32,000 bases of DNA from Pyrolobus fumarii 1A (GTDB taxonomy: Archaea > Thermoproteota > Thermoprotei_A > Sulfolobales > Pyrodictiaceae), in NCBI RefSeq assembly GCF_000223395.1, contig NC_015931.1, positions 1,320,001-1,352,000 on the forward strand. Direction: 5' to 3'. Of the stretch, positions 2,687 to 19,176 are shown in pieces (position 1 is the stretch's first letter; each line of letters opens with the position of its first letter). A model generated the notes under the pieces. That model searched no databases. It was not told the DNA's origin and saw nothing but the letters and a program-made list of their open reading frames with translations. Made by a program: the position numbers and the translations under genes.

Positions 2687-2696
2687 CGGTCTAAAA

Positions 2697-3803: not shown

Positions 3804-3812
3804 GCCTATAAA
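3804..3812 (-). promoter_or_regulatory. TATA box (CTTTATAGG on the minus strand) for the membrane protein gene
   Basis: A canonical archaeal TTTATA is centred about 34 nt upstream of ATG 3774, which implies a very short leader. Confidence 0.4.
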
Positions 3813-3817
3813 GAGCC

Positions 3818-4078: not shown

Positions 4079-4143
4079 TGGTGATGAGCGCGCCCTTCGT
4101 GTCGAGGCAGCTGCCGATGAGAGAAGGTCCCATTACTGAAGCT
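4076..4143 (+). ncRNA. candidate C/D box sRNA (weaker candidate)
   Basis: There is a perfect C box GUGAUGA (4081-4087) and a perfect D box CUGA (4136-4139). A C'-like CGAUGA is at 4115-4120, and AGCU/AGCU flanks (4076-4079/4140-4143) can pair. Against it, D' is degenerate and the C'-D spacer is 15 nt rather than 12. Confidence 0.35.
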
Positions 4144-4204
4144 TCTCGGCTACAAGGGCAACGACAGACTCTACTACCTTGTTTAAGATGAAGACGTCCA
4201 CTTG

Positions 4205-4210
4205 TTTATA
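4205..4210 (+). promoter_or_regulatory. TATA box (TTTATA) upstream of the glmM-like gene
   Basis: TTTATA lies about 35-40 nt upstream of TTG 4245 in an AT-rich stretch. Confidence 0.4.
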
Positions 4211-4244
4211 CGCATATCACATTTTCTGCTCTAACTATTCATTA

Positions 4245-6544: not shown

Positions 6545-6589
6545 GGCACAGCACCGTGCGGTATCCCGGGCTTAGCCCCTTTAGTGTGG

Positions 6590-7039
6590 CTACTCCTCCT
6601 CACCGCTCTCGCTAAGATTCCAGGGCTTGCCGCCCTTCACTATCTTCTCTGGCAGGCGATCAGCATACTTGCGCAAGAAGCGCAGATCCTCGCCCTTCTT
6701 TCGCAGCTCGTCGGGGAGCATCCTCGGTATCTCGTCGATTATCGGGTACCAACGGCCGCAGTTAGGACAGTATATCACACCAGTCACGACCTCCACCTTG
6801 AGACACTCGAGGCACAAGTTCTTCTCGCGTATCTCCTCCTTTGCCTGCTCTATAGACTGTCCTATCGGCTGTTGGAGCCTATAGCAGTAGAGTTCGCAGA
6901 GGGGAGGCTCGTACTGCTCCAGTAGCTTCTTTATCTGCTCCTCGCGCTCAGGATACTCACGCGTCTCTATGACATAGAGTTCGAGTGGGAAGTGGCGACA
7001 CATGGGGCACGCAGCAATGTCCATGAACCTATACTTCAA
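6590..7039 (-). CDS. Trm112-like zinc-ribbon protein with an inserted helical/Cys-containing domain
   Basis: N-terminal CPMC plus C-terminal VIYCPNCGRWYPIIDEIPRMLPDE is the Trm112/DUF343 signature. About 70 residues are inserted between the two halves of the ribbon. Confidence 0.6.
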   Translation of the reverse strand: MKYRFMDIAACPMCRHFPLELYVIETREYPEREEQIKKLLEQYEPPLCELYCYRLQQPIGQSIEQAKEEIREKNLCLECLKVEVVTGVIYCPNCGRWYPIIDEIPRMLPDELRKKGEDLRFLRKYADRLPEKIVKGGKPWNLSESGEEE

Positions 7040-7075
7040 GTTTCTCTCCCAGCATTGGTTAGGAACCCGGGAGTA

Positions 7076-8101
7076 TTAACGCAAGGCGGCTGGGAGAGCA
7101 CTCTCACGCACACATCGCAACGCGTGCAAATGGAACCATCGTTCTACTCTCAACCCCTCCTCTGTCGTAGCGCGCAGTTTTACCAGCCACTCGGCGCTAT
7201 CGGCACGTTCGATGTTAACGTACACGTCTACCTCTACCTGGTCGCTTGGCACCGGGTCTCCGGTAACCTCTACAACTAGGCGGATGCTGCCCATCCATGC
7301 GGTATCGACAGGAGCCGCTAGAATCGCGAGCGCCTCACCGCCTGATAGAACCCTTGCTAGCACGATACTATCAACACTCTCGAGTATATCTCGAAAGCCG
7401 CAGCGCCTCACCGTACTACAGTCAAGCCACGCGTCACACCCCCGTAAGTCCATTACCTCTACTTCTACTAGAGGCGCTTCAAGCAGCGAACGTGGAGGCA
7501 TTGTGGTCGCTCGCACGCCACGAACACGAAGACCATGAGTTGGCGCTCTAACGATGGTCTTGACCCGGTACCTACCCAGCTCTACGCCTTCGAGGCTGCA
7601 TCCCGGGCATATACAACACTCCTCTCCCTCGATATCGACTAGGAACAGGTTGTTCACTCCCCTCTCTTCTATAGCAGTGAGTACCCAGTTGAACCCCTCA
7701 AACTTGAACCCAGACGTATAGACGGTCACGTCGCGCGACGTAACATTCGACTCGTTTACTGCCAGCGCCTCTACTCGTATGCTACTCGCGCCCACACGGA
7801 GAGCCTCCAAGCCACGTATCACTACCCTCGCTGGCCTCCTGGCCGTAGCGGCTGCTATGCCAGCTGACGCACCAGCAGCAGCATTAGCTAGGACCGTCAT
7901 TGCATGCTTTACAGCATCGGGTGCCGCCGCCTCCACAACCAGGAGAGGTAGGAGAGCGCCAGCCAACCCACCCATGAACCCTACAATGAGGGGGCCAAGG
8001 TTGTAGACAATCACCATGCAGGGCGTGAATGATAGGCAGGCTCGCCATAACCTCTTCCTAAGCCTCAAAACGACACCAGCAACCCTAATCCACAATATCA
8101 C
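7076..8101 (-). CDS. hypothetical membrane-anchored protein, translationally coupled to tatA
   Basis: GTG 8099-8101 overlaps the tatA stop (GTGA). An alternative ATG is at 8017 (MVIVYNLGPLIVGFMGGLAGALLPLLVV). It has one N-terminal hydrophobic span followed by a beta-rich, Val/Arg-rich body of about 280 aa with no recognisable motif. Confidence 0.5.
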   Translation of the reverse strand: MILWIRVAGVVLRLRKRLWRACLSFTPCMVIVYNLGPLIVGFMGGLAGALLPLLVVEAAAPDAVKHAMTVLANAAAGASAGIAAATARRPARVVIRGLEALRVGASSIRVEALAVNESNVTSRDVTVYTSGFKFEGFNWVLTAIEERGVNNLFLVDIEGEECCICPGCSLEGVELGRYRVKTIVRAPTHGLRVRGVRATTMPPRSLLEAPLVEVEVMDLRGCDAWLDCSTVRRCGFRDILESVDSIVLARVLSGGEALAILAAPVDTAWMGSIRLVVEVTGDPVPSDQVEVDVYVNIERADSAEWLVKLRATTEEGLRVERWFHLHALRCVRESALPAALR

Positions 8102-8418
8102 TTCTTGCTGCCGGAGCTAGCCTCCGACTGCTGCTCGCTCTTCGCCTTCTCGATGATCTCTTTCTTCAGCTCCTCGATACTCTTACCCTCAGTACTAATG
8201 CCCATCTTTTCCGCAAGCTTACGTATCAACTCCTCATCCTCTTTGCTCACCTTACTCTCCTTCTCACCCTCCTTCTCCTTCTTCTCTTCCTCCTCTACAA
8301 GCCCCTGCGAAGCCTTGCGGAACTCGTAGAGGGCTTGACCCAACCCGCGAGCCAACTCCGGTAGCTTCTTTGGACCGAAAATAAGGAGGACTATCACGAG
8401 AATTATGACCCACTCCAT
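8098..8418 (-). CDS. tatA: Sec-independent (twin-arginine) translocase subunit TatA/E
   Basis: MEWVIILVIVLLIFGPKKLPELARGLGQALYEFRK is the canonical TatA TM helix plus amphipathic helix. I chose ATG 8418 because an AAAATAAA TATA box sits about 27 nt upstream, making it leaderless. The track start at 8442 lies inside that box. Confidence 0.8.
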   Translation of the reverse strand: MEWVIILVIVLLIFGPKKLPELARGLGQALYEFRKASQGLVEEEEKKEKEGEKESKVSKEDEELIRKLAEKMGISTEGKSIEELKKEIIEKAKSEQQSEASSGSKK

Positions 8419-8442
8419 GCCCTGAAACGGCCATGCCGACAT

Positions 8443-8450
8443 TTATTTTG
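8443..8450 (-). promoter_or_regulatory. TATA box (AAAATAAA on the minus strand) for tatA
   Basis: The plus-strand TTATTTTG at 8443-8450 is centred about 27 nt upstream of ATG 8418. Confidence 0.4.
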
Positions 8451-8587
8451 CGCCCCCAGGTGCTAACCACACTAAGACTCCTATAAAAAGAGGCATCGGG
8501 TAACATTTTCGTCAACGTGTCGGAGTGCAGAGGAAGGGGCTTAACAGGGCTTAGAGGGTAAGCGTTCCAAACCGGAGTGGCTACTTC

Positions 8588-9655
8588 ATGGCGAGCCACG
8601 AGGAAGAAGCTACTATCTGGGAGCATCTTGAAGAGCTGAGCGTGAGATTACGCCGCATAATCATCGCCATAGCCATAGCCGCTGTTATCTCCGCAGCAGT
8701 GCCTTTAGAGGCACTGCAAGGCATCCTCGCCCTGGCACCAGCCATAATTAACGTTCTACCGTTTCATCATACAGTCCCCAACCACACCTACGTTACTATG
8801 ACCAACAACACGACAAACGTAACAATGATAATGCATAATGTTCTAGAGTGTAACGTCGTCAAACTCTCGGATACCAAGAACGGTCTACTTGTGCTACTCC
8901 GTTGCAAACCCAGCGCAAACAACACGATTAATACAAAGGCTAACTCGGGTGGCAACTCACTACTCCCATTGCCATTCACAATCAGCTGGACACCGCTCGT
9001 CGTGAAAGTCCCCGAAGCCATAGTGTCGGTAGTAGTGCCACAAGAGGTATACGTGGCTGGCAAAACATACCGAGTTGTGCTAATGCCCACCGGCGCTTTC
9101 GAGGCTTTCGAGATAATACTGTTCTCTGCGCTTCTCCTGGGCGTCGTTCTGGCATCGCCCATTATAGTTAGGGAGATATGGGCTTACGTTGAGCCCGCGC
9201 TATACCCCCATGAGAAGGAGCTTATCAAGAAGTACGGCTTCTTCTTTACGCTGTTATTCCTCTTTGGCATAGCGTTAGCGATATTCGTCATAGCTCCACT
9301 AACCTATCGCGTTACGCTCAGCCTCTATCCGTTCTTCATACCATCAGACTACAACGTGATTATCAAGGTGTCTGTTGCCGAGGTGTTAAAGTTCACAGTC
9401 GAGCTAGCCATAGCCACTGGACTGATATTCGAGACACCACTAGTGATCTACATACTAATAGTGCACGGCATACTCGAGCCGGACACCGTTGAGCGCAACC
9501 TCAAGTACGTGTTCCTAGGCGCCATGATACTAGGCGCGATAATCTCGCCAGACCCCAGCGGCCTAGGCATGGTGATAATAGACCTCACGATATACCTCCC
9601 GATCCACCTGGCTGTAAAGATGGCGAAGAAGAAGAAGCATGCGGAAAAAGACTAG
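8588..9655 (+). CDS. tatC: twin-arginine translocase subunit TatC with an enlarged first extracytoplasmic loop
   Basis: The N-terminus WEHLEELSVRLRRIIIAIAIAAV is the TatC HL.ELR.R motif. The downstream TMs and the GAFEAFEIILF, YPHEKE and ISPDPSG motifs fit TatC. An extra loop segment sits between TM1 and the conserved P/E.F motif. Confidence 0.8.
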   Translation: MASHEEEATIWEHLEELSVRLRRIIIAIAIAAVISAAVPLEALQGILALAPAIINVLPFHHTVPNHTYVTMTNNTTNVTMIMHNVLECNVVKLSDTKNGLLVLLRCKPSANNTINTKANSGGNSLLPLPFTISWTPLVVKVPEAIVSVVVPQEVYVAGKTYRVVLMPTGAFEAFEIILFSALLLGVVLASPIIVREIWAYVEPALYPHEKELIKKYGFFFTLLFLFGIALAIFVIAPLTYRVTLSLYPFFIPSDYNVIIKVSVAEVLKFTVELAIATGLIFETPLVIYILIVHGILEPDTVERNLKYVFLGAMILGAIISPDPSGLGMVIIDLTIYLPIHLAVKMAKKKKHAEKD

Positions 9656-9682
9656 CCAGTCTTGACGAGAACGTATATGCGG

Positions 9683-10354
9683 CTACACTAGCCCCATAAG
9701 ATGCATTACCACGAGGGCAGCACTAGAGAACAACACTATCAGCACATTGTCGTCTATCGGGCCGAACTCTAGCCTCTCTATCACAGATGCAACAGCCGCT
9801 ACAAGCATGCCCGGCACACCCAGTAATCCACCCACGAGTGGCACGGTAACAGTGGCCATCGCCAGGTTGCCAACCCAGTGTTTACTCCTTCTACCAACCA
9901 CCACGTTACGCACAACACCTGTAACGGCATCGCCTATTGATATGAGCAGCGCTGGCGTCACTGCTATCCACGGATTGCCGGTGATCAGCCATAGGATTGC
10001 AATGCCCAGCGCCCATGCTATACAGAAGTTGACCTCGTAGGCGTTATCTGGCACCTGGAACCAGTACATCAGCTTGTTTGTCGCCCTCGCTAATGCGAGA
10101 CCGGCTGCTAGTACGAGACCCATGACCAGAGGGATGAGTGGACTTGTGAAGACGAAGGGTGTTAGAAAAGCTACTACGCCTCCTCCAAAAACATGGATGT
10201 ACTTTCGGACGAAGTACACCGCGCGGTAGTATCCGAGGCCGATACCCCGTAGGGCGTTATAGAGGAGCTTGGAGAGAATTACGATTAGAGCAACATAGCC
10301 TAGCAACAATGCGCCAATGAGAGCCTCATTAGAGGGGGACAAACGGTGCCCCAT
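9683..10354 (-). CDS. polytopic membrane protein, dolichol/polyprenol kinase-like (CTP-transferase-1 superfamily)
   Basis: Multi-TM protein with ISIGDAVTGVVRNVVVGRRSKHWVGNLAMATVT, which resembles the GD..A..vGr..G..K..EGs motif of dolichol/phytol kinases. I preferred ATG 10354 over TTG 10366. Confidence 0.45.
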   Translation of the reverse strand: MGHRLSPSNEALIGALLLGYVALIVILSKLLYNALRGIGLGYYRAVYFVRKYIHVFGGGVVAFLTPFVFTSPLIPLVMGLVLAAGLALARATNKLMYWFQVPDNAYEVNFCIAWALGIAILWLITGNPWIAVTPALLISIGDAVTGVVRNVVVGRRSKHWVGNLAMATVTVPLVGGLLGVPGMLVAAVASVIERLEFGPIDDNVLIVLFSSAALVVMHLMGLV

Positions 10355-10405
10355 GTGAAACGGCAAAAGCCTAGGGGTATTATGATGTAGCTACGACTCT
10401 GGTCT

Positions 10406-12406
10406 TTACTCTCCTCGGAACTTCGCTGCCCTCCTCTTCTCGAGGAATGCTCTGATGCCCTCCTTTGCGTCCTCGCTTGCAAGCAACGCCGAGAACATGC
10501 CAGCTTCTGCTGCGAGGCCCGCCGCTAGGCTTGACTCGGCTGCTGCCCTTACAACGCGCTTCGCAGCAGCTATGGCAAGTGGTGGTTTCTCGGCTAGCTT
10601 CTTGGCTAGTAGCCTCGCCTCGAATTCCAGCAGCGATGCTGGCACGACGTCAGCTACAAGTCCCCACTGTTCGGCTGTCTCAGCGTCGATCATCTCGCCG
10701 GTCATCACAAGCCATAGGGCGCGGGATACACCAAGGTGCTTTACGAGCCTCTGTGTACCGCCAGCACCGGGTATGAAGCCCAGGTTTATCTCGGGCTGAC
10801 CTAGGGTGGCACGGTCGCTTGCTATTCTAATGTCGGCTGCTAGCGCGAGTTCCAGGCCTCCACCAAGTGCATACCCGTCAATGGCCACGATGATGGCTGC
10901 CGGGGCCTCCTCTAGCAACCTGGCGGTCTTGCCGAACTCCTCGCTTATCTCCAGCCAGGCCTTCTGCGGCTTAGTCTCGGCAATCTTCCTGATATCGAAG
11001 CCGGCTGATAGCACTCCACCCGCACCCATCAATACTATCGCTCGTGCACCCCGCGCGATCAGGGTCTCGATAGCCTCGCGTATACCCTTGAGCATATCGG
11101 GGTTGAGCGCGTTGCGCGCCTCTGGGCGGTTTAGTATGACCCATCCAATGTTCTCCTCCAGGCGGGCAACTACTTTGCCGCTGGCGAACTCCATCTTCTC
11201 GACACGATACTCGTGGAAGCCCTTGCCTGCAGAGACGCCAGTCTCGCCCTTCTCTACCTTCTCGCGTAGGATGCTTACCGCTTGATAGTCTGGGAGACCC
11301 CAGCGCTTAGCCTTGCTATCAATACTCTCGAGTATCTTGTCGAGGCCTATGAGGTCGCCTAGTGCAAGTATACCCATTGGTAGGTTTAGGCCAAGTACCG
11401 TCGCCTTATCCACGTCGCTCGGGTCTGCAACGCCGTTCTCGACTAGCCACGCACCCTCATTGACACCCATGTCGACCATTTGTATGTAATCCACTCTCTT
11501 TGCCACACGTGGCGGTAGGCTCGGTTTGAGGAACTTGCCGGGGCCCGGATACTTGTAGAAGCCCTCGCCGCTCTTAACGCCCAGCTTCCCGCTCTCAACC
11601 ATCTCTTCGAACAACTTACACAGTGTCATGTTGAAGCCTCGGCTTATCATATTCTTCGAGAGGTCTACGAGGACGTCTAGCCCTATGTAGTCAGCCAGCT
11701 CAAAGGCCCCCATAGGGAAGCCTAGCTTGAAGCGTAGAGCTGCATCCACCTGCTCGATGGTGTAGACCCCCTTCTCGACGAGCCTGCATGATTCGTTGAG
11801 TATGCGTATCATTACACGGTTTACTATGAAACCGGGTACGTCCTTGCGCACAACAACCGGCTCCTTGCCGAGCCTCTTAGCGAGGGCAACAATAGTCTCA
11901 ACGGTATCATCGCTAGTCTTGGCACCGCGAACAACCTCTACCAGCTTGAGGATCTGTGGCGGGTTGAAGAAGTGCATGCCTGCGACTTTCTCGGGTCTAC
12001 TGGTAGCCTCAGCTATCTCGCTGATGGGTATGCTGCTCGTGTTAGTCGTTAGTATCGCGTGAGGCGGCGCCACCTCGTCAACGGTCTTGAAGACTTGCCT
12101 CTTTATCTCGAGCTTCTCTGGGACAGCCTCGACCATATAGTCGATGCCTTCAGCCGCCTTGCGTAGGTCAGTGCTTGTCTCTATCCTCGCCATCACAGCA
12201 TCTATAGGCTCGCGAAGCGCGCCTTTAGACGCGAGCTTCTCTAGACTGGCCCTTATCCTTTCGAGCGCACGGCGCAGGAACTCCTCCTTTATATCCACGA
12301 GGCGCACACGGTAACCATTCATGGCGAATACTTGGGCTATACCGTGACCCATCACACCAGCGCCAACAACGAGAACTGTCTTGATCTCCTCTGGGCGTAG
12401 AGGCAT
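10406..12406 (-). CDS. bifunctional 3-hydroxyacyl-CoA dehydrogenase / enoyl-CoA hydratase (crotonase)
   Basis: The N-terminal Rossmann motif VLVVGAGVMGHGIAQVFA and the HBD core are followed by a C-terminal crotonase fold (ALNPDM...GAGGVLSAGFDI...GGGLELALAADIRIA). This matches the fusion enzyme used in crenarchaeal hydroxybutyrate/fatty-acid metabolism. Confidence 0.9.
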   Translation of the reverse strand: MPLRPEEIKTVLVVGAGVMGHGIAQVFAMNGYRVRLVDIKEEFLRRALERIRASLEKLASKGALREPIDAVMARIETSTDLRKAAEGIDYMVEAVPEKLEIKRQVFKTVDEVAPPHAILTTNTSSIPISEIAEATSRPEKVAGMHFFNPPQILKLVEVVRGAKTSDDTVETIVALAKRLGKEPVVVRKDVPGFIVNRVMIRILNESCRLVEKGVYTIEQVDAALRFKLGFPMGAFELADYIGLDVLVDLSKNMISRGFNMTLCKLFEEMVESGKLGVKSGEGFYKYPGPGKFLKPSLPPRVAKRVDYIQMVDMGVNEGAWLVENGVADPSDVDKATVLGLNLPMGILALGDLIGLDKILESIDSKAKRWGLPDYQAVSILREKVEKGETGVSAGKGFHEYRVEKMEFASGKVVARLEENIGWVILNRPEARNALNPDMLKGIREAIETLIARGARAIVLMGAGGVLSAGFDIRKIAETKPQKAWLEISEEFGKTARLLEEAPAAIIVAIDGYALGGGLELALAADIRIASDRATLGQPEINLGFIPGAGGTQRLVKHLGVSRALWLVMTGEMIDAETAEQWGLVADVVPASLLEFEARLLAKKLAEKPPLAIAAAKRVVRAAAESSLAAGLAAEAGMFSALLASEDAKEGIRAFLEKRRAAKFRGE

Positions 12407-12507: not shown

Positions 12508-15500
12508 GTGGAAGAGTGCAGGCTGCCGTCATACGAGAGGAGGCTTAGCGAGGTTGGATTGGAGGCCCGTGAGACTCTCGCGTTGACACGCAACCTCCCG
12601 TCAATAAAACCGATAGTTGAGCGCGTAGAGGCATTCCTCGACTCTCTTCAAAAGGCTGAACGACCACAGATACTTCTTGTCGTGGGTGACTGGGGTGAGG
12701 GCAAAACCGCCCTCTACCAGGGCATCATCAAACCCAGGTGCGATGAGGGGAAGCTTGCGTGCACACGTGTAGTGGCATCCAACGTGTTCCATTGGATGCG
12801 CCGCGTTATCCGCGAGCTGCCACCCGGTGAAGCCTTCCTCTACGGCCTTGTCTGCTCCGCTCTCCACTCTAGGCGAGGCACTACATGCGATCCTAGGAGA
12901 CTCGACGAGCTTGTCACAGAGCTATACGAGGATCTGTGCACGAAGAGGGGTTTAGCGTTCGGCACACCGCTACTCATCTACATAGATGAGTTCGAGGATA
13001 TCGTCTCACTCTTTGACAGCCGAGATGGTCTTGAGGTGATAAGGGGTGTCATGGAGGGTCTAGTACAACTCGCTAATCGCGACCTAGCTATGCTTGAGGA
13101 GAGGGGGCTCGGTGACAAGATACATCTTGTGATAGCCGTATCTAGGTCTGCCCATAACGTGCTTCAAACGAGAGGCGAGACCGCCAATATATGGCCGCGT
13201 GTGGCTCGCCGAGAGAATGTCGTCGAGCTTAGGAGGCTAACTGTCGCCGAGTCAGCTTGGCTGCTCGACAAGCTGGTAGCCATGGTGTATGGCAGCCGAG
13301 TTAAAGGCGTGACTGATGTTGCCGAGTATGCTTCCCTCCTCAACCCAGCTCTGCTTGCTTCGACGGGGCTGCCAGCCGCACTCGAGAGGATAGCGAATAC
13401 GCTTGCCGAGAAACTCACGGCCCTATGTAATGGCGAGAAGTCTGCTAGGCTGACTGTGCTCAACGCACCAGAAGTCCTGTCCAACGCCGAGGTTAACATA
13501 GAGGGCGTCTACGAGAAGGTACTTATTCTCGACGAGTATCTCGCAATCGAACACACGTGTGTACGCGAACTTGAGAAGCTGGGCATACCTCATGATAAAG
13601 CCCTCTTCGCGTGCAGGCTTGTACTCCTCTCGCGCAGCGGCGTACCAGAGAAGCTCGTTGACAATCTGGCTGCTGGCTTGTCACGCGCTCTGCGCTTCCG
13701 CGGATTTGCAGGCAAAGCTCGACTTTACCGTGTAGTTGTAGAGCCAAGTATGTTCCTTGAGAGAGCACTCGCCGTTATCAAGCGCTTGGAGGAGAGTAGC
13801 CAGCTCTATGCGGAGGCGGTTAGACAACTCGGCTCTGAGACCCTGGAGGTGTACCGTAGCCTACTCGATCCTCTGCTAGGCTACTGTGCTGACGGGGGAC
13901 TATGCCTCTCTAAGCCTGAAGAACTACGACATACCCTATCCGAGAGGCTTGGTGTGGAGAGGAGCCTTGCCGAGATCCTAGCAGCATTCGTCGAGGAGAC
14001 CATCCAGATGCTCGTCGAGGATGGCGTGCTCCGCGAGGAGGGCAGCGCCCTGGAAGTTCCTATCGAGAAAGCCTCCAGGTACATATTCTCTCATGAGGTT
14101 GCGCTCCTCGACTTCATACCACGTGAGGATAGACTACGTGTCTGGAGGGAGGCGAGACGCGTAAGCATAGACGCCATCGTTGCCAGTATAGCGCCGCTTG
14201 TTGCCACGAACCTGGCTAGGCTTGTACCAGGCGCTTCTAGCGAGCGTCTCGAGTCGCAGTTTTACGAGAAGGAGGGTGTCAAAGGGTTACTGGTCCGGAT
14301 ACGAGGAGAGCCTGGCAGAGCTAGGATACGAGTCGGTGGGAGAAGTACTGTACAGGTACGTATCCCCCGCGAGCTTAGGGTACTCCTGGTGCCGGTTTCG
14401 GAGGAGCTTGACGCCGAGCAAGTGAAGAGACTATTCTCCGACTTGGATGTGTATTCGCGCCCACACTTACTCCTCATGGTCAGTGTGGGTGACGTACCCG
14501 GCCTTGAGGATACGATACCCGTCCTGGAGGCTAGTCTCGGCGTACCCGTTGAGAGGATCTCATTGCAGAGGATAGCCGCGCTACGCCTGGCAGCCATAAG
14601 CGTCCAGGCTAGCAGGACGGGTGTACCACCAGGCTCTGCAAGTTTTGTACGAAGCTTGTCCGCGATGCTAGAGGGTAAGAGCGTCGCACTACGAGGCTTT
14701 GATGTCACGAAACTCCAGGATGCTCTTACGAGGATAGCCAGGGATATTGGAATACTGTTGCTGCACGAAGAGGTGGAGAAGCTGCTCCTTAGGCATGGCG
14801 TGCTGTTGCCGAGAGAGTTGAGAGGTTCTAATGGCGAGCTTTACAAGCCCGAGGATCTAGTGGCTGTTCTACGCTGGCTTACCCTATACCCGGGTAGGCT
14901 CGACGAGAGCGTCGAGGTAAGAAAGATATACGAGGAGATTGAGGAGAACGTGCGCCGCTACATGGTCTATGGTAAGCGGTACTTCGAGCTGATAGGGAGG
15001 GACATAGAGTCTCCGTCGGAGTTTGAGAAACTAGTCTATAGTCTCGAACCTTTACACCTAGGCATTGTCGACGTGTCTAGTAGCGGCGTTAAGAGAGTTA
15101 GACTCACGCTTGGAGACTCACCCTACATATCGAGGCTGATACGCAGCCTTAGAGGCACGTCTAGCCTTGATGCACTCGTGTCAGCGTTTGTTGACCCGGG
15201 TAGCGGTGAGGCTACCCAGGCGCTACTAGAGGCTGCCATCGCACTGGGCCTGCTTAGTGTAGATAAACACGGTTCAGCTACACGTGTGGACCTTGAGGCC
15301 GAGTTAGTAGCTCTAGGGCGCGACCTGGCATCCTTCGAGGAGAGATTATCGTCGCGTATCGATAGAATGGGCTACATGATATTTGGTAAGGAGCGTGGCT
15401 ATCGCGCCGCCGTTACTCGTAGACTACTAGAGTCTATACGCGAGAGGTTAGAGCTGGCCACGCGCCTCGCAGCCCACAATACGTTCGAGGCTGTGCGGCT

Positions 15501-17001
15501 CCTGGTGTCTGCAAAGCGACTCTCCGACGACCTGCTAGGCGTCGATGCGAGGTATGACGCAGAAAGGGAGAAGTGCGGCGAGTATCGTAGACACGCTGAA
15601 CTCATAGTAGCTGCTGATAAGGCGTTCAGGGCATACATCGCTAGGCTAGAATCACTCCTGCACGAGGTGCGAAACAAACACAATACACTCATAGAGCTTC
15701 TAGAGAGACACGTTGTTGAAGAGGGATTGAGAGTAACCAATAGTCTCCTGTCTCGCCTAGAGAGAGCAAGGAGAACCCTCAACGAGCTATACGAGGCGCG
15801 CCTCTCGGAGGCAGAGTTGGAGGCCATAGCTAGACGCTTATGGGAGCGAGCGAGAGAACCAAAGAGTTTCCCATTCTACTTCCAGGGCAACGGACCCAGA
15901 TACTGCTTCAACTACAAGCTGTGGAGTGCAATCGAAGAACATAACGTGACATCGCTGATAGACGAAGCTAATAGGTGGCTCGAAGAGGTGGACAGGATCA
16001 TCTCCAGGATAAGTGGCTTCGTGGAGAGCATTCACAGCATTAAGGTCGAGGCCGAGAAGCTCATTCAAAGCATCAGAGGTACTGAGCTAGGCTCGAGGCT
16101 TCTAACTGGTCTAGATAGCATCGAAGAGCCGGGTATAACGAGGATAAGGGTTAGCGAGGTTCTCGATATAGGCGGGTCAGGAGGGCTACATAGTCTAAGC
16201 GAGCTTGTCGGTGGCTGGATTAGTGAGAACGACCCGCGCCGAATCATCTCAAGGCTACAAGAACTATCCCGTATTACAGCCACCGTGGAGACCCTACTTG
16301 ATCGCATTAAAGCAGCGCATGCCGACGCCGAGAGGATGCGCTCAACTCTTGCAAAACTAACGCAGAGAATAGAAGAGAGTCGAGTGCTGGAGACGCTAGC
16401 TGCTATCCTTGAGGCTCTGGATGAGATCGCGAGTCTAGCATCTAACGCGGATAGTGTGCTTGAACGTGTAAAGCCGGCATCCAGATTCGATGCTATGCTC
16501 GAGCAAGCTAGGCGTGTACAAGAGGATATTGAGGCCACTGCCCGTAGAATAGATGATCTGGTACGCGACATAGAGCATAGGATTAACGTTCTATCGTCTA
16601 TTCTTGAGTCTAGGCTCAAGAGTCTAGTTGAGAAGTATGGCGTGGTAGAGAGGGTAGCAGAGAGGGTTAATGATGAAGGGTTAAGGAGAGTGGCCTCTAT
16701 TGTGAGAGAAGCTAGACGAATACTAGCACGCAAGTCGCCTGGCATCGATCACATCGCCGAGCTTATTGATGCCATTGCAGGACTCGAGATGCTCCCAGAG
16801 CCAGAGACTCTGGTAGAACAGGCCATTGCTAATCTGGGTCTGAGTAAGGCTGAGGCACGTCTGTTAATATTGATAGCTGGTAGAGGTACGACCAGGGTTT
16901 CAACACTAATCCGTGAGTCTGGACTAGACCCGCAGGAGGTCAAAGAGGCACTGTGGCGTCTGGTCGAACGTGGCATTATAGACGTCCAGATTGTCTACTG
17001 A
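12508..17001 (+). CDS. giant (1,497 aa) AAA+/P-loop NTPase with a long helical/coiled-coil region and a C-terminal winged-helix domain; function unknown
   Basis: GTG start. Walker A is GDWGEGKT (nt 12685-12708) and Walker B is LLIYIDEFED (DE at 12985-12990). There is a sensor-like HLVIAVSRS and a lid-like VELRRLTVAESAWLL. Residues about 940-1420 are E/R/L-rich and heptad-like. The final roughly 60 aa, LSKAEARLLILIAGRGTTRVSTLIRESGLDPQEVKEALWRLVERGIIDV, form a MarR/TrmB-like wHTH. Confidence 0.8.
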   Translation: MEECRLPSYERRLSEVGLEARETLALTRNLPSIKPIVERVEAFLDSLQKAERPQILLVVGDWGEGKTALYQGIIKPRCDEGKLACTRVVASNVFHWMRRVIRELPPGEAFLYGLVCSALHSRRGTTCDPRRLDELVTELYEDLCTKRGLAFGTPLLIYIDEFEDIVSLFDSRDGLEVIRGVMEGLVQLANRDLAMLEERGLGDKIHLVIAVSRSAHNVLQTRGETANIWPRVARRENVVELRRLTVAESAWLLDKLVAMVYGSRVKGVTDVAEYASLLNPALLASTGLPAALERIANTLAEKLTALCNGEKSARLTVLNAPEVLSNAEVNIEGVYEKVLILDEYLAIEHTCVRELEKLGIPHDKALFACRLVLLSRSGVPEKLVDNLAAGLSRALRFRGFAGKARLYRVVVEPSMFLERALAVIKRLEESSQLYAEAVRQLGSETLEVYRSLLDPLLGYCADGGLCLSKPEELRHTLSERLGVERSLAEILAAFVEETIQMLVEDGVLREEGSALEVPIEKASRYIFSHEVALLDFIPREDRLRVWREARRVSIDAIVASIAPLVATNLARLVPGASSERLESQFYEKEGVKGLLVRIRGEPGRARIRVGGRSTVQVRIPRELRVLLVPVSEELDAEQVKRLFSDLDVYSRPHLLLMVSVGDVPGLEDTIPVLEASLGVPVERISLQRIAALRLAAISVQASRTGVPPGSASFVRSLSAMLEGKSVALRGFDVTKLQDALTRIARDIGILLLHEEVEKLLLRHGVLLPRELRGSNGELYKPEDLVAVLRWLTLYPGRLDESVEVRKIYEEIEENVRRYMVYGKRYFELIGRDIESPSEFEKLVYSLEPLHLGIVDVSSSGVKRVRLTLGDSPYISRLIRSLRGTSSLDALVSAFVDPGSGEATQALLEAAIALGLLSVDKHGSATRVDLEAELVALGRDLASFEERLSSRIDRMGYMIFGKERGYRAAVTRRLLESIRERLELATRLAAHNTFEAVRLLVSAKRLSDDLLGVDARYDAEREKCGEYRRHAELIVAADKAFRAYIARLESLLHEVRNKHNTLIELLERHVVEEGLRVTNSLLSRLERARRTLNELYEARLSEAELEAIARRLWERAREPKSFPFYFQGNGPRYCFNYKLWSAIEEHNVTSLIDEANRWLEEVDRIISRISGFVESIHSIKVEAEKLIQSIRGTELGSRLLTGLDSIEEPGITRIRVSEVLDIGGSGGLHSLSELVGGWISENDPRRIISRLQELSRITATVETLLDRIKAAHADAERMRSTLAKLTQRIEESRVLETLAAILEALDEIASLASNADSVLERVKPASRFDAMLEQARRVQEDIEATARRIDDLVRDIEHRINVLSSILESRLKSLVEKYGVVERVAERVNDEGLRRVASIVREARRILARKSPGIDHIAELIDAIAGLEMLPEPETLVEQAIANLGLSKAEARLLILIAGRGTTRVSTLIRESGLDPQEVKEALWRLVERGIIDVQIVY

Positions 17002-17018
17002 AAGACCGGTGGGCGGGT

Positions 17019-17363
17019 ATGTTGCTACGTCTTATACTCGCCACCACTGTGTCTTTCTTCACGACACCTGTGCTGGGGCTTTTCTTTCCACTCATAGGAC
17101 TCATGATAGCGGGTATCATAGCAGGCTACGCCGCTGGCTCGCCCCTGACAGGCTTCATAGCCTCGGCGTTAGGCTCGCTACCATGGCATTTGCTCGCTGC
17201 GCACCTCTTTGCTGCCGTGCTGCTAGGGCTTCTAGCCGGGGTTGCAGCAGGACCTCTCGCATACATAGCTGTCGTTACTATCGGCGTTTCCGTTAGCGGA
17301 CTTGGAGGCCTTATAGGCGGTCTATTAGCGTCTAGAGCTTCGAAATCAACTCCTCAGAGCTAA
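17019..17363 (+). CDS. small Gly/Ala-rich polytopic membrane protein (114 aa), probably co-transcribed with the giant NTPase
   Basis: ATG 17019 lies 18 nt after the upstream stop and is preceded by a GGTGGG SD-like motif. The protein has 3-4 hydrophobic spans (LILATTVSFFTTPVLGLFFPLIGLMIAGIIAGY...). I trimmed the track ORF 16953..17363. Confidence 0.55.
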   Translation: MLLRLILATTVSFFTTPVLGLFFPLIGLMIAGIIAGYAAGSPLTGFIASALGSLPWHLLAAHLFAAVLLGLLAGVAAGPLAYIAVVTIGVSVSGLGGLIGGLLASRASKSTPQS

Positions 17364-17868
17364 GCACTTCTGCACCATACACTTGTCTCATGTACTCTAG
17401 CGCGAAGTTGTGCCTATCTTTAGTAACGCCGGCCGTCGCGTCCTTCACTACTATGACTTTGTAGCCTCGGAAGAATGCACCTGCCGCTGTGTGCAACACG
17501 CATATGTCAGTCGCGACGCCCGTGAGCACCACCGTATCAATACCCAGTTCGCGCAGCAAGAGGTCTAGGTCTGTCGCAAAGAAGGCATCATACCTTCTCT
17601 TTAGAACCACATAGTCCTTCTCCGTCGGCCTCAGCTCTGGAACCACCTGTGCCTCTTCACTACCACGTACAGCGTGTGGCCCCCAGTGCTTTACCTCAAA
17701 GTCGAATGGGTAATGCGCATCGTTAGTGTATATCACGGGGTAGCCGCGCTTATGGAACTCTTCACGGAGCCTAGCTATCACCGGTATTATGTTCTCGGCG
17801 CCCTCGGCTTTCAACCGCCCCCTGACGAATACCTCCAGCATGTCTATGACTAGGAGTGCTGGTTTCAA
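17332..17868 (-). CDS. pncA: nicotinamidase/pyrazinamidase (isochorismatase family)
   Basis: ALLVIDM, DAHYP...HWGPHAVRGSEEAQV (metal-binding and oxyanion region) and GVATDICVLHTAAGAF (catalytic Cys) are present. The TTG start is preceded by GGGGAGGG. The 3' end overlaps the convergent small membrane gene by 32 nt. Confidence 0.7.
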   Translation of the reverse strand: MKPALLVIDMLEVFVRGRLKAEGAENIIPVIARLREEFHKRGYPVIYTNDAHYPFDFEVKHWGPHAVRGSEEAQVVPELRPTEKDYVVLKRRYDAFFATDLDLLLRELGIDTVVLTGVATDICVLHTAAGAFFRGYKVIVVKDATAGVTKDRHNFALEYMRQVYGAEVLSSEELISKL

Positions 17869-17973
17869 GGTTCCAAACCCTCCCCTTTCTACAGGACCGG
17901 ATAGTGGCCAGAGTTACGCATATTGGCGTTTAGTCGATTGGCCGTCTCCTTGGGTTAGGGTTTGCAACGCTCT

Positions 17974-19176
17974 ATGAGGCTAGACGTCTCTAGATTCGCC
18001 CGGGAGCGTTATGCCGGCCTCCTGGTCATACTCATTACGGTTAGCCTCATGGTATTGACGCTGGCGTCTGTGGGTGTTGACATTGAGGCCTCATCCTATT
18101 ACCTGCGCGGCACGAGCCCCAACTCGAATAGCTATGAGCTAAAGAATAGCCTGCAACTCTTCCAGGTGATTGAGCGAGAGCCCATAGTCGCGGTGATGTT
18201 CGAGTCGCCGACATGCCCCACATGCCAGAGGATGAAACCATACTGGCATATGCTCGAGATTGTGAGCGATAAACTCGGCATCAAGTTCTACCATATTGTC
18301 TACTCGTCTGCAACACACGAGGCGTTTGTAAGGTATCGCGTAGAGGAGACACCGACCTTTATCGTATTCGTTAATGGCAAGCCCGTTGATAGGCACGTTG
18401 GCGACTTTGTTGCCGATAACATTACGAGAGCTATGCTAGAGTGGGTTAAGAGCGCTGTGAGAGAAGCCAGTATGCAAGCCAATGTGACGAGTAGAGCGAG
18501 CTACAATGAAGAGTCAAGCCAAGCGTTCCAAGCTGGTGTGGGGGTAGCAGCGTTTGCTACCATGCTTGCAGCCGCACTCGTAGCCGGCATACTCGCGACT
18601 TTCTCTCCATGTGTGCTACCGGTTCTCGTTGCCTACGCTACAAGCTCTGCCTCCAGAGGCACTCAAATGCCCGTATCTATGTTCGCCTCTTGCAGTGCCG
18701 CTGCAGCCGGCGGTGCACTGGCCCTCGGCATGCTGTTCGTGATTGCTGGCGCCGTGGCAGCAAACCTTCAGAGTTTGATACTGCCTAGCATTGCTCTTGC
18801 CATTGTCGCGGCTGGCATAGCGATGATGCTAGGCGTGCCGATGGAATTCGCTACAATGAGGGCACGGCGGGCGGGGCTTCTCGGCTTCTGTAGCCTATAT
18901 GGCGTTGTAGCCTTACAATGCACGCTACCGCTGGTCGCTGGAGCGCTACTCCTAGCCATGGGTGCAGGTGACATACTACGAGGTGTGCTTGTTGCACTGG
19001 CCTTCGCGTTAGGGCTCGGCGCTTCACTCGGGGGCGTCATGTATGCCTCGTCTAGACTTGGCGCGGAGTTTGCAAGGAAGCTGGTTGCGAGAAGCACTCT
19101 CTTGAACCGCATAGGCGGACTGGTAATGGTTGCCGCTGGTGCCTACCTGCTAGCCTATGCGCTTGGCGTGGTCTAG
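17974..19176 (+). CDS. membrane thiol:disulfide oxidoreductase, thioredoxin-domain / CcdA (DsbD-type) fusion
   Basis: An N-terminal TM anchor is followed by a thioredoxin fold with CPTC (FESPTCPTCQRMKPYW...ETPTFIVF). A CcdA-like channel domain follows, with the two conserved Cys-x2-P motifs FSPCVLPVL and LQCTLPLV. The start is either ATG 17974 or TTG 17962. Confidence 0.75.
   Translation: MRLDVSRFARERYAGLLVILITVSLMVLTLASVGVDIEASSYYLRGTSPNSNSYELKNSLQLFQVIEREPIVAVMFESPTCPTCQRMKPYWHMLEIVSDKLGIKFYHIVYSSATHEAFVRYRVEETPTFIVFVNGKPVDRHVGDFVADNITRAMLEWVKSAVREASMQANVTSRASYNEESSQAFQAGVGVAAFATMLAAALVAGILATFSPCVLPVLVAYATSSASRGTQMPVSMFASCSAAAAGGALALGMLFVIAGAVAANLQSLILPSIALAIVAAGIAMMLGVPMEFATMRARRAGLLGFCSLYGVVALQCTLPLVAGALLLAMGAGDILRGVLVALAFALGLGASLGGVMYASSRLGAEFARKLVARSTLLNRIGGLVMVAAGAYLLAYALGVV

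Follow-up and report, generated by a model that had tools for sequence, protein, structure and literature searches.

HerA–NurA is a genuine DNA-repair, end-resection machine of archaea, and Orc1/Cdc6 initiators are slow-evolving proteins of about 400 amino acids that are near-universal in archaea. Two papers report HerA and NurA from thermophilic and hyperthermophilic archaea in general (PMC4641729, PMC2288612). A computational prediction describes HerA/FtsK capture systems, in which HerA is coupled to an Orc/CDC6 AAA+ protein with an inactive restriction endonuclease (REase) domain and a wHTH domain, as an anti-invader theme (PMC10853773; NAR 2024). 7-Deazaguanine marks in DNA have been reported in the literature from bacteria and viruses; in the viral case of phage nt-1, DpdA and an ArcS core make dG+ in DNA (PMC10516641). 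Here we show that Pyrfu_1429 from Pyrolobus fumarii belongs, over its full length, to a family of ~1,400-aa proteins that is widespread and has no name. In these proteins an Orc1/Cdc6–TnsC-type AAA+ module is followed by several winged helices, then by a nuclease-like domain that seems to be inactive and a long helical arm that evolves fast; a winged helix of the TrmB type closes the chain.

Within the window, by which we mean the whole 32-kb stretch of P. fumarii DNA that was analysed, Pyrfu_1429 is one unbroken reading frame with a GTG start (Table 1). This codon lies 17 codons 5′ of the start in the deposited 1,480-aa annotation, and the longer version is supported because residues M1, C4, R11 and S14 are invariant within the close family. 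The large ORF is real. Neighbouring genes encode 3HCDH/ECH, TatA/TatC, isochorismatase, thioredoxin and PAPS reductase, and no nuclease, methyltransferase or PglZ gene is present in the window, in agreement with the initial annotation, which had described the flanks as housekeeping. Comparison with the loci of Pyrodictiaceae relatives places Pyrfu_1429 inside a vertically inherited, syntenic housekeeping block, and six or more divergent genomes of Pyrodictiaceae type have a full-length ortholog at the same locus.

Table 1. Features of Pyrfu_1429 and its downstream region (nucleotide positions in the window)
Feature	Position	Strand	Description or basis
Full ORF Pyrfu_1429	12508..17001	+	1,497 aa
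AAA+ ATPase core, aa 40-245	12625..13242	+	Model 1 strands/helices, Foldseek, family-wide invariants
Walker A GDWGEGKT, aa 60-67	12685-12708	+	
Walker B LLIYIDEFED, aa 155-164	12970-12999	+	
R235	13210-13212	+	Arginine-finger region
AAA+ lid, helical bundle, aa 246-305	13243..13422	+	Model 1 helices 246-264, 268-271, 275-285, 289-305
About three winged-helix-like modules, aa 311-553	13438..14166	+	Model 1 DSSP: helices then β-hairpins
Nuclease-like α/β domain, aa 554-705	14167..14622	+	Model 2 topology α-β5-α-β-α-β-α
Helical region and two further wHTH-like modules, aa 706-930	14623..15297	+	Model 2 DSSP, motifs
Long helix-rich arm, aa 931-1440	15298..16827	+	Model 2 to aa 1010, profile matches, composition, conservation
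FPFY...FNxKLW element, aa ~1120-1139	15865-15924	+	
TrmB/MarR-type wHTH, aa 1441-1497	16828..16998	+	Pfam TrmB match aa 1442-1494
GGTGGG	17008-17013	+	SD-like motif
114-aa hydrophobic ORF, ATG start	17019-17363	+	Weak DUF5518 match; excluded from Pyrfu_1429 unit
Isochorismatase gene	17332-17868	-	Convergent

The N-terminal module had been read as AAA+-type, with a sensor-like and a lid-like segment behind the Walker motifs, and the structural data bear this out. An AlphaFold model of aa 1-560 (model 1; pLDDT 89.4, pTM 0.87; secondary structure by DSSP) matched AAA+ structures such as those of TnsC, archaeal Orc1/Cdc6, PaBY2304 and RuvB in Foldseek, with E ~2e-6 to 1e-5. In this model the HLVIAVS segment forms strand β4 (aa 205-211), VVEL forms β5 (237-240) and the segment beginning TVAESAWLL is the first lid helix. 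Family-wide invariants of the core are W62-T67, D160, E161, E163, N190, H206 and R235, the last of which forms the arginine-finger region with R231 and R234; in the lid, E248 is near-invariant. Pyrfu_1429 is predicted to possess ATPase activity. Two other classes of P-loop NTPase were tried and rejected. Models of STAND NTPases matched the P-loop only, and all fell below their cut-offs (NB-ARC 14.7 bits, aa 39-75 only; NPHP3_N 15.8; nSTAND5 13.8); Pfam detected neither a C-terminal repeat sensor array (TPR/WD40/LRR) nor an N-terminal effector, and the C-terminal body consists of the helical arm and a wHTH. KAP_NTPase was matched in three of nine family members with a best E of 0.03, and the model has no hydrophobic insert of the KAP kind.

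No motif had been recognized in the ~1,000 residues of the middle body, a view that has to be abandoned since wHTH-like modules, a nuclease-like domain and family-wide motifs are present there. The winged-helix array that follows the lid closes with a conserved ELxxLxF..R..R...WR motif (F536, R542, R547), and directly after this segment the homologous gene is naturally split at loci L015, L017, L018 and L021. A second AlphaFold model (model 2; pLDDT 86.6) reaches aa 1010, so that folds are known for aa 1-1010. For the nuclease-like domain, Foldseek returned no significant match in PDB or BFVD, only weak integrase/RuvC/PD-(D/E)xK hints. Five of 23 family members gave weak matches to NA-iREase1 (three members, best E 0.0011) or Mrr_cat (two members, best E 1.6e-4), and Pyrfu_1429 itself gave neither. 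Conservation is limited to P652, H653, G661 and L694, with no acidic set. As modelled, this is probably an inactive domain with a fold of the restriction-endonuclease-like or RNase-H-like kind.

The helical region that follows contains the invariant D832, part of a 'DIE' motif, and leads into the arm, which is the fastest-evolving segment of the protein (28-30% identity). The arm includes a β-hairpin with invariant K961/R963, the conserved FPFY...FNxKLW element and a Gly-rich break at ~aa 1195-1240; no conserved columns occur in aa 1146-1440 of the family alignment. Its profile matches are to coiled coils and designed bundles only. The coiled coil proposed for aa 940-1420 is borne out only as a helix-rich region low in Gly and Pro, as its composition indicates, and the FPFY...FNxKLW element and the Gly-rich break interrupt it. 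An SMC/Rad50-type ABC ATPase was rejected, since the AAA+ head is contiguous and the matches to Rad50, JetC and LmuB, all at aa 1240-1430 and far short of the cut-offs, are noise of the coiled-coil kind.

At the C-terminus, Pfam TrmB was matched in nine of nine close family members (best E 2e-10), and Pyrfu_1429 itself scored 24.5 bits, just below the cut-off of 25.6. Within this domain L1485 is invariant family-wide, and L1445 and E1449 are near-invariant. The MarR/TrmB-like winged helix noted initially is thus corroborated, and motifs, Pfam and AlphaFold together support the proposed domain logic, in which a giant body bears an Orc1/Cdc6-type AAA+ head and ends in a winged helix. We expect the protein to bind DNA.

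The small hydrophobic ORF behind an SD-like motif is also present as described, beginning 17 nt past the Pyrfu_1429 stop, and at its 3′ end it overlaps the isochorismatase gene, which is convergent. It had been proposed to form a two-gene unit with Pyrfu_1429 and to tether it to the membrane. The small gene is present in 3/5 syntenic loci and adjoins the large gene in 1/5 only: its homologs, restricted to L002 and L006, lie beside isochorismatase, 3-6 kb from the large gene, and from L001 and L008 it is absent. We reject the pairing because the small gene sits beside isochorismatase or is missing in relatives; a gene pair not conserved in related genomes had been named at the outset as grounds for refutation. 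Tethering finds no support.

Pyrfu_1429 had also been labelled an orphan. An exhaustive profile search instead recovered 205 representative clusters at E<=1e-3 and 92 at E<=1e-30, most of them 1,370-1,600 aa long; clusters were drawn at the 50% identity level and 205 is a lower bound for the family. Species-representative genomes contributed 45 loci, from many archaeal phyla and a few bacterial MAGs (Chloroflexota, Bacillota, Poribacteria and actinobacterial MAGs), and the distribution is patchy, many archaea being without the gene. In one case a distant homolog is located 5-8 kb away from cdvA/cdvB/vps4. The family has no name in Pfam, NCBIfam or PADLOC, PADLOC holds no model for the large protein, and across these resources and our profile searches no characterized family covers the full length of Pyrfu_1429, as initially surmised. 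Seventeen residues, from Walker A through L1485, are invariant family-wide and all 17 are kept in Pyrfu_1429. It is the fastest-evolving gene of its syntenic block, with 33-38% identity vs 76-91% for the housekeeping genes on either side when the same pairs of genomes are compared. Membership of the Orc1/Cdc6 initiator family was rejected on this divergence, the length of 1,497 aa and the patchy occurrence.

To identify recurrent partners, neighbours were clustered over the 45 family loci. A NurA-like nuclease gene is present at 26/45, and a HerA ATPase gene at 22/45, directly upstream of the large gene; in most same-strand loci the HerA stop falls -22 to +43 nt from the first start of the large gene. 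Genes for a TGT/DpdA-like transglycosylase and for DUF5591 (ArcS-core) each occur at 13/45 loci (~30%), QueC at a single locus and a Vut_1 (YhhQ-like) transporter at another. These identities rest on Pfam (NurA, DUF87/HerA, DUF5591, TGT, QueC, Vut_1) and PADLOC (HerA, DpdA); the DpdA-like partner was matched by PADLOC DpdA at E 4.7e-14 and by NCBIfam DpdA at 52.9 bits. Scored against housekeeping equivalog cut-offs, the partners reach 66/350 bits for TgtA, 51/440 for ArcS, 73.5/150 for QueC and 72/800 for HerA; all fall far short, and they are system-specific, divergent paralogs. The NurA-like proteins have an invariant D/E/D set, with H353/E354 conserved in 90% of them or more. Neither Mre11/Rad50 genes among the recurrent neighbours nor DpdB or DpdC among the annotated partner proteins were found, and the 45 loci, as clustered or mapped, contain no PglZ, BrxA/B, methyltransferase or GNAT gene. 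We found no description in the literature of a NurA/HerA/large-ATPase/DpdA-like gene set.

HerA, NurA, DpdA-like and other partner genes are absent from the P. fumarii window and from the loci of its closest relatives, and a word-indexed profile search for the system-type NurA gave no match among P. fumarii proteins, a weak negative. In a neighbour-joining tree the solo clade of P. fumarii is sister to a HerA+NurA-linked clade (L012-14), and the solo state originated three times or more and was maintained. The clade of P. fumarii is one such solo derivative, having lost its cis partners.

Because the family usually adjoins HerA and NurA, and often DNA-base-modifying enzymes, its genomic setting suggests a role in anti-virus DNA restriction, and the partner gene set points to 7-deazaguanine marking of DNA combined with restriction by HerA–NurA. 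The explanation we favour, to which we assign about an even chance, is that the family represents the large subunit of a HerA/NurA operon and that Pyrfu_1429 is an ATP-driven DNA sensor/loader of this anti-invader system. The AAA+ protein would bind DNA through its winged helices, use ATP for assembly on DNA and then recruit or license HerA–NurA, which would pull in and degrade DNA lacking the 7-deazaguanine self-mark. The P. fumarii copy probably still works as a DNA sensor/loader dependent on ATP, alone or together with the housekeeping HerA–NurA pair in trans. The scheme predicts that the protein forms a complex with HerA/NurA, that restriction depends on modification and that the P. fumarii copy is active. 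Full-length homology with its invariant residues, the AAA+ fold with lid and winged helices, partner linkage, the paralogous nature of the partners, the conserved NurA acidic residues, the sister position in the tree, fast evolution and patchy distribution count in its favour, as do viral dG+ synthesis and the predicted HerA capture theme. Against it stand the lack of partners near the P. fumarii copy or its closest relatives, the weak negative of the NurA search, the vertical, syntenic housekeeping locus, the middle domain without a significant structural match and the gap in PADLOC for the large protein; moreover HerA–NurA also repairs DNA, so linkage alone is not proof of defence. The earlier idea of a sensor/defence NTPase gains support from the NurA, HerA and DpdA/ArcS-like linkage in relatives; tethering to the membrane gains none.

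The same linkage to the archaeal end-resection machine (PMC3326311, PMC5715905) could be read as DNA repair with no defence system involved, the protein recognizing or tethering ends and loading HerA–NurA at double-strand breaks. The frequency of NurA and HerA at family loci, the many DNA-binding modules, a long helical arm that would be analogous to that of Rad50, and vertical inheritance in hyperthermophilic Pyrodictiaceae all fit this account. We nevertheless consider it unlikely: the head is AAA+ and not ABC/Rad50, the HerA and NurA partners are divergent paralogs and not the canonical repair pair, 13 loci carry a DpdA-like TGT and DUF5591 (with QueC or Vut_1 at single loci), and the family is patchy, reaches bacterial MAGs and evolves far faster than its neighbours. 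This rapid evolution and scattered occurrence also weigh against a chromosome organiser or replication-related Orc1/Cdc6 paralogue serving as an NTP-driven DNA-binding scaffold on the host chromosome, the scaffold or organiser role being the one that the initial annotation had envisaged. Such a role would suit the Orc1/Cdc6-like head fold with wHTH domains, the conserved position among housekeeping genes and the distant homolog near the cdv genes. It is disfavoured because Pyrfu_1429 is the fastest-evolving gene in its block and the family is missing from many archaea; with operon linkage to nuclease and DNA-modification genes, and no match to Cdc6_C or an Orc family model, we regard it as very unlikely.

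A stand-alone, STAND-like sensor tethered by the 114-aa downstream protein seems highly improbable. The short gap and SD-like motif make co-transcription plausible in P. fumarii, and CED-4 is among the fold matches, alongside the P-loop-only matches to STAND models. Nevertheless, those models remain sub-threshold, there is no effector domain, and the small gene is found beside isochorismatase, where present, and not next to the large gene in any relative examined. The solo gene might also be a non-functional relic drifting towards pseudogenisation after partner loss, as the missing cis partners and the rapid divergence, especially of the arm, would allow; this we scarcely credit, given a frame intact over 4.5 kb, retention of every family-invariant residue, orthologs at the same locus in divergent genomes and the repeated origin and persistence of solo forms.

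The anti-invader reading can be extended, more speculatively and with less than even prospects of being correct, to an undescribed, mainly archaeal restriction–modification-like system. DpdA-like, ArcS-core and QueC proteins might mark genomic DNA with 7-deazaguanine of the archaeosine type, and a dedicated HerA–NurA might capture and shred unmarked DNA under the AAA+ sensor. This sensor may have been kept alone in Pyrolobus and other hyperthermophilic Thermoproteota and re-wired to the essential housekeeping HerA–NurA resection machine, linking antiviral sensing to DNA repair. At the family level this would predict that the genomic DNA of archaea carries 7-deazaguanine, possibly archaeosine, that is host-encoded, and that HerA–NurA has a new use as restriction effector. 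A large family at present 'hypothetical' everywhere would gain a name and a role open to testing, and P. fumarii, with a fast-evolving DNA-sensing ATPase outliving its partners, would be a natural experiment on the domestication or re-wiring of defence components. For the annotation itself, the start codon and the 'orphan' label are corrected and a false two-gene unit is removed.

Overall, Pyrfu_1429 shares features with several known systems. Core, lid and following winged helix align with archaeal Orc1/Cdc6 (2v1u, 1fnn, 2qby) over 400-500 columns at E 5e-6 to 3e-5 (2v1u_A 5.2e-6, 1fnn_A 8.6e-6, 2qby_B 2.6e-5; Foldseek alignments of model 1 span 419-507 columns). However, TM is only 0.3-0.46 and identity 14-15%, Pyrfu_1429 is 3.5x longer, with a distinctive WGEGKT P-loop, fast evolution and another gene context, and at the sequence level AAA_22 reached 22 bits vs a cut-off of 27, with no Cdc6_C or NCBIfam Orc1/Cdc6 match. 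The ATPase core finds its closest structural match in TnsC/TniB (7ufi, 7rzy; E 1.8e-6, TMt 0.50-0.53), and Pfam TniB was weakly matched in three family members; the difference is that transposase/TniQ context is missing here, ~1,200 extra residues are present and the sequence match is confined to the P-loop region. BrxC/PglY is likewise a giant ORC/Cdc6-like AAA+ protein in modification-linked defence, and the BrxC structure 9zll_D ranks 37th in the fold search at E 1.1e-4; assignment to this BREX ATPase (DUF499) was rejected, there being no DUF499/DUF6079 match and no PglZ/PglX/BrxA-B in the window or the 45 loci. HerA and a TGT also occur together in the BREX-related capture (BRC) system, but without NurA (PMC12839542).

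With the Dpd 7-deazaguanine system (dpdA-K) and viral DpdA plus ArcS2, the family shares the DpdA-like transglycosylase, the ArcS-core DUF5591, QueC (one locus) and Vut_1 (another), the DpdA-like gene being absent from the P. fumarii window; the presumed restriction half is NurA–HerA plus the AAA+ protein and not DpdD-K. The canonical HerA–NurA complex has partners of the same folds and families (Pfam DUF87, NurA) and the conserved NurA acidic residues, whereas here the paralogs are divergent, far below equivalog cut-offs, and the AAA+ protein would be a third subunit. The HerA/FtsK capture systems (PMC10853773) differ in several respects. Their effectors belong to two described REase families and the linked nuclease here is NurA-like; NurA and TGT are absent from the main text of that paper, and one of its supplementary files contains no Pyrolobus, Pyrodictium, Ignicoccus, Nitrosopumilus or NurA. 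The nuclease-like domain of Pyrfu_1429 follows three wHTH-like modules and not the AAA+ core directly, an extra ~500-aa helical arm is present, DpdA/ArcS-like genes occur at 13 loci, and HerA, in the operon at 22/45 family loci, is missing from the window copy and its closest relatives. What is shared with the capture systems is the Orc/CDC6-type AAA+ module with winged helices, a HerA-type translocase in the operon of relatives, a nuclease effector and a mobile, patchy distribution. The inactive REase domain that the capture systems have between AAA+ core and C-terminal wHTH may have a counterpart in aa 554-705, a segment with no conserved acidic residues and with weak NA-iREase1/Mrr_cat matches in other family members.

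Although Pyrfu_1429 was initially annotated as an orphan, and word-indexed protein searches left the impression of a tiny family (nine relatives only, eight of them full-length at 33–38% identity and one at 23%), an exhaustive HMM search overturned both views. A profile of aa 1–960, run against 1.84 billion representatives, matched 205 clusters at E<=1e-3, 179 at E<=1e-10 and 92 at E<=1e-30, most of them 1,370–1,600 aa long. Every named member is a 'hypothetical protein', from Thermoproteota MAGs or Candidatus Nitrosocaldus. When one genome per GTDB species was scanned for the signature [GA][ED]WGEGKT, 45 loci were confirmed, in Desulfurococcales, Pyrodictiaceae, Ignisphaera, Ignicoccus pacificus, Methanodesulfokora, Thermoplasmata, Archaeoglobales, Hydrothermarchaeum, Aenigmatarchaeota, Nitrosopumilus and Bathyarchaeia, and in bacterial MAGs labelled Chloroflexota, Bacillota, Poribacteria and actinobacterium. 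The viral contigs scanned contained no relatives. A shorter paralog of ~910–920 aa was seen in the MAGs of L010 and L011, loci with P. fumarii-type copies; its neighbours are a HAD hydrolase and a conserved uncharacterised protein (cluster c10), which also follows NurA at family loci L036/L004, and QueC lies ~1.4 kb downstream.

Alignment of 29 sequences revealed 17 invariant residues along the whole length of the protein: in WGEGKT and DEFE, at N190, H206 and R235, in the F536/R542/R547 'WR' motif, in PH653, at D832 ('DIE'), at K961/R963, at F1123...N1135xK1137 ('FPFY...FNxKLW') and at L1485 in the terminal wHTH. The P. fumarii protein keeps 17 of 17; therefore homology is full-length, and the retained residues indicate that Pyrfu_1429 is constrained in the same way as other members. 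At four loci from Ignisphaera and several Desulfurococcales MAGs the gene is split just past the AAA+/wHTH module into an ORF of ~600 aa (AAA+ domain and wHTH array) and one of ~884 aa (the remainder), followed by NurA, and the split point coincides with a module boundary in the AlphaFold models. This natural split in four lineages, together with the full-length form in more than 30 independent genomes, argues against an assembly-level fusion and marks a real module boundary. The deposited start of Pyrfu_1429 lies 17 codons 3' of the GTG that opens the ORF; the extra N-terminal residues M1, C4, R11 and S14 do not vary among close homologs, which makes the GTG the probable start.

An AlphaFold2 model of aa 1–560 (model 1; pLDDT 89.4, pTM 0.87) was built from an input of only seven sequences. 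The motifs quoted in the initial annotation are all present, and the model places them in an AAA+ fold: Walker A sits after strand beta1, beta3 ends with Walker B D160/E161, beta4 and beta5 are 'HLVIAVS' and 'VVEL', and the first lid helix is 'TVAESAWLL...'. Foldseek against the PDB returned AAA+ proteins, headed by TnsC (1.8e-6), Aeropyrum Orc1 (5.2e-6), Pyrococcus PaBY2304 (5.8e-6) and Pyrobaculum Cdc6 (8.6e-6), with RuvB also matched and RdrA, BrxC and CED-4 at lower rank. TM scores for these matches are only modest, 0.3 by query and about 0.5 by target; the head therefore belongs to the Orc/Cdc6–TnsC–STAND assemblage and has no close relative.

Pyrfu_1429 is not a member of any of the five named families with which it was compared. 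Orc1 and Cdc6 rank among the best of them, but Orc1/Cdc6 profiles are unmatched and the size and tempo of the protein are wrong for that family; likeness to STAND NTPases is confined to the P-loop. BrxC is found by fold, and a BrxC/DUF499 assignment is opposed by the lack of a profile match and of PglZ context. Pyrfu_1429 is not a KAP member. SMC/Rad50 membership is opposed by the head, which is AAA+, not ABC. In whole-protein scans with Pfam, NCBIfam and PADLOC, P-loop and wHTH matches stayed sub-threshold and the remainder, including MutS_III, Rad50, LmuB, JetC and SpiroCoCo, was coiled-coil noise; none of these matches was accepted as homology.

Beyond the head, aa 541–1010 were modelled separately (model 2; pLDDT 86.6, pTM 0.87). 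Foldseek of the domain at aa 554–705 against the PDB and BFVD gave no match at E<=1e-3 (best E 4e-3), with weak hints of integrase core, RuvC, terminase nuclease and PD-(D/E)xK folds, and a profile of this beta-domain found no match among PDB sequences. When the segment was scanned against Pfam in 23 diverse members, the two commonest families were both restriction-endonuclease folds, NA-iREase1 (three members, best E 0.0011) and Mrr_cat (two members, best E 1.6e-4); that of Pyrfu_1429 itself has no Pfam match, and no acidic residue is conserved across it in the family alignment. It is provisionally read as a nuclease-like module, probably inactive. The Gly/Pro-poor region at aa 1011–1440 matched only coiled coils and designed bundles in profile searches; it includes the conserved FPFY...FNxKLW element, and aa 1146–1440 contain no conserved column. 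A crude heptad Fourier analysis of this helical arm was uninformative. The C-terminal TrmB/MarR winged helix scores 24.5 bits in Pyrfu_1429, just under the 25.6 cut-off, and every one of the nine close members has the TrmB match (best E 2e-10). The proposed domain logic, an AAA+ head with a winged helix, thus stands on the AAA+ fold matches and the TrmB matches. Against PDB sequences, a nine-member alignment profile matched nothing but generic wHTH regulators and designed coiled coils; the match of the C-terminal wHTH to the winged helix of CdvB (2xvc), at E 0.031, was not significant.

Coordinates of features in Pyrfu_1429 (aa), in the window and at related loci (nt)
Feature	Position	Where	Remarks
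AAA+ core	aa 40-245	Pyrfu_1429	model 1
Lid	aa 246-305	Pyrfu_1429	model 1
~3 helix/beta-hairpin modules	aa 311-553	Pyrfu_1429	model 1; read as winged helices
alpha-beta5-alpha-beta-alpha-beta-alpha domain	aa 554-705	Pyrfu_1429	model 2
Helices, two further wHTH-like modules	aa 706-930	Pyrfu_1429	model 2
Long helices	aa 929-1010	Pyrfu_1429	model 2; broken by beta-hairpin with K961/R963
TrmB-type wHTH	aa 1441-1497	Pyrfu_1429	Pfam
Big gene	12508-17001 (+)	window	1,497 aa; same protein as Pyrfu_1429 (deposited length 1,480 aa)
Added N-terminal codons	12508-12558	window	from the GTG
GGTGGG	17008-17013	window
Small hydrophobic ORF	17019-17363	window	114 aa
ORF without Pfam match	9683-10366 (-)	window	227 aa; between tatC and 3HCDH/ECH; no counterpart there in L001, L008
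ORF without Pfam match	7076-8101 (-)	window	341 aa; only 44-53% identity in L002, L008
DUF2341-domain protein	23983-27780 (-)	window	1,265 aa; same position in L001 and L008 (53-55% identity); another large, fairly fast-evolving block member
Arch_ATPase-type protein (PF01637/AAA_16)	3293-4390 (-)	L002	365 aa; between tatA and tatC; absent from window
Islet	12659-18568	L002	close relative
Islet	4841-8227	L006	close relative
Islet	1888-2515	L005	close relative
Islet	397-1048	L007	close relative
Small-ORF homolog	18248-18550	L002	E ~1e-20
Small-ORF homolog	7913-8218	L006	E ~1e-20
Split family gene	1790-6319	L015
Split family gene	5980-10442	L017
Split family gene	5992-10445	L018
Split family gene	4180-8653	L021
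Shorter paralog	5929-8661	L051
Shorter paralog	5872-8637	L053
TGT to shorter family member	1562-9387	L048	Desulfurococcales MAG
cdvA, cdvB, vps4	1-2731	L004	cell-division ESCRT genes

The neighbours of the big gene in the window are housekeeping genes: TatA, TatC, a 666-aa 3HCDH/ECH fusion divergent from the big gene, isochorismatase, a thioredoxin-domain protein, a PAPS-reductase/ferredoxin protein, an ABC ATPase and the DUF2341 giant. Synteny of this block extends to five related MAG loci and is strict around a variable islet between the big gene and the isochorismatase gene. At two of them (L001 and L008) the islet is empty and the isochorismatase gene overlaps the 3' end of the big gene; L002 has an ABC transporter, HepT/MNT, PaREP1 and GDPD there, L006 a 168-aa unknown protein, an AAA_15/21 ATPase and GDPD, and P. 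fumarii the 114-aa ORF alone. Among close relatives the islet holds toxin–antitoxin/defence-like genes (HepT/MNT, PIN with AF2212-like, AAA_15/AAA_21 ATPase, PaREP1) and an ABC transporter. The 114-aa product had been proposed as a membrane partner encoded in a two-gene unit, a pairing that fails in L002 and L006, where its homologs lie 3–6 kb from the big gene and are convergent with the adjoining isochorismatase gene. Because these homologs pair with isochorismatase and not with the big gene, the apparent unit is an accident of the otherwise empty P. fumarii islet.

Across the 45 loci, every ORF lying no more than 5 kb from the big gene was clustered. A NurA-like protein (~370 aa; 26 loci) is encoded upstream or just downstream, and HerA (DUF87, ~555 aa; 22 loci) directly upstream, mostly abutting or overlapping the start of the big gene. 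Directly downstream, at 13 of the 45 loci, lies DUF5591, the archaeosine-synthase core (175–280 aa), and a TGT-fold protein (~345 aa; also 13 loci), closest to DpdA in PADLOC, adjoins it. Single loci add QueC (L040), a Vut_1-family (YhhQ-like) transporter (L038) and a weak PCNA/9-1-1-like protein (L048). Scores far under the NCBIfam equivalog cut-offs (TgtA 66 versus 350, ArcS 51 versus 440, QueC 73.5 versus 150, HerA 72 versus 800) mark all these partners as dedicated paralogs of housekeeping enzymes. In the NurA-like partners the D/E/D set is invariant and H353/E354 are kept in 90% or more. The canonical order NurA–HerA–BIG–DUF5591–TGT, where BIG is the big gene, is exemplified by a Thermoplasmata chromosome (L040; NurA 3130-4245, HerA 4250-5938, BIG 5935-10179) and kept in Euryarchaeota, Nitrosopumilus, Bathyarchaeia, Aenigmatarchaeota, Methanodesulfokora and bacterial MAGs.

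Three loci deserve separate mention. L048 has the order TGT, 255-aa protein (weak Hus1/Rad9/PCNA_N matches), DUF5591, HerA and a shorter family member of 1,174 aa; NurA was not detected there. L028 (DQTF01000096.1), labelled Crocinitomicaceae (Bacteroidota), carries a complete DUF5591–NurA–HerA–BIG set with TGT nearby, and its big protein groups with archaeal operon-linked members in a neighbour-joining (NJ) tree; this may reflect either mis-binning of the contig or a true transfer. At L004 the cdv and vps4 genes lie 5–8 kb upstream of a distant NurA-linked homolog, a proximity that is probably coincidental.

In Thermoproteota the unit is eroded. HerA and NurA are divergent upstream in L012–14, NurA stands alone downstream in L004/L036, L019, L026 and the split forms, and the P. 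fumarii, Ignicoccus/L020/L022 and Hyperthermus/L023/L032/L037 groups lack any partner. A tblastn search of the window with all partner clusters gave no match, and searching with a NurA profile retrieved nothing from P. fumarii, a weak negative. The NJ tree of aa 1–560 is distance-based and carries no support values; in it the solo clade of P. fumarii is sister to the HerA+NurA-linked L012–14 clade, and there are at least three independent solo clades. The big gene is the fastest-evolving of its syntenic block: in the same genome pairs its product shows 33–38% identity overall (28–30% in the helical arm, 35–48% in the ATPase) versus 76–91% for flanking genes (PGM, spermidine synthase, Trm112, 3HCDH/ECH, isochorismatase). 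Because of this fast evolution and a patchy, cross-domain distribution, a conflict system fits better than a core chromosome function; of the roles first suggested, the defence-type reading is favoured over the chromosome organiser.

HerA–NurA combines a hexameric translocase with a dimeric nuclease and resects DNA. We propose that the big AAA+ protein would bind DNA by way of its winged helices, assemble there at the expense of ATP and then license the HerA–NurA paralogs, leading to DNA degradation, and that at loci with DpdA, the ArcS core and QueC a 7-deazaguanine mark could separate self from non-self. A DpdA and ArcS-core pair of phage nt-1 has been shown experimentally to put dPreQ0 and dG+ into DNA (PMC10516641). 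That Pyrfu_1429 is an ATP-driven DNA sensor/loader of such an anti-invader system, now a solo derivative, is in our judgement an even call, and for P. fumarii any step past 'ATP-dependent DNA-binding protein' is conjecture. The protein might work with the housekeeping HerA–NurA pair, which two papers report for thermophilic and hyperthermophilic archaea generally (PMC4641729, PMC2288612), or alternatively might act alone. Its solo status lowers certainty on the present function of the gene in the window and adds an evolutionary question.

In a non-exhaustive literature search (Pyrfu_1429, HerA+NurA+DpdA, DUF5591+DpdA, NurA+transglycosylase, archaeal tgtA5), we found no description of the NurA–HerA–BIG–DUF5591–TGT gene set. 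A BREX-related system joining HerA and TGT has been described (PMC12839542). Computational work has proposed that Orc/CDC6-type AAA+ proteins, coupled to HerA/FtsK, nucleases, wHTHs and inactive REase domains, place restriction machinery on invader DNA (PMC10853773); one supplementary file of that paper names none of the relevant taxa. The big protein is most like the Orc/CDC6 component of these predicted HerA/FtsK capture systems, but the family described here differs from them in its NurA nuclease, domain order, long helical arm and linkage to deazaguanine genes.
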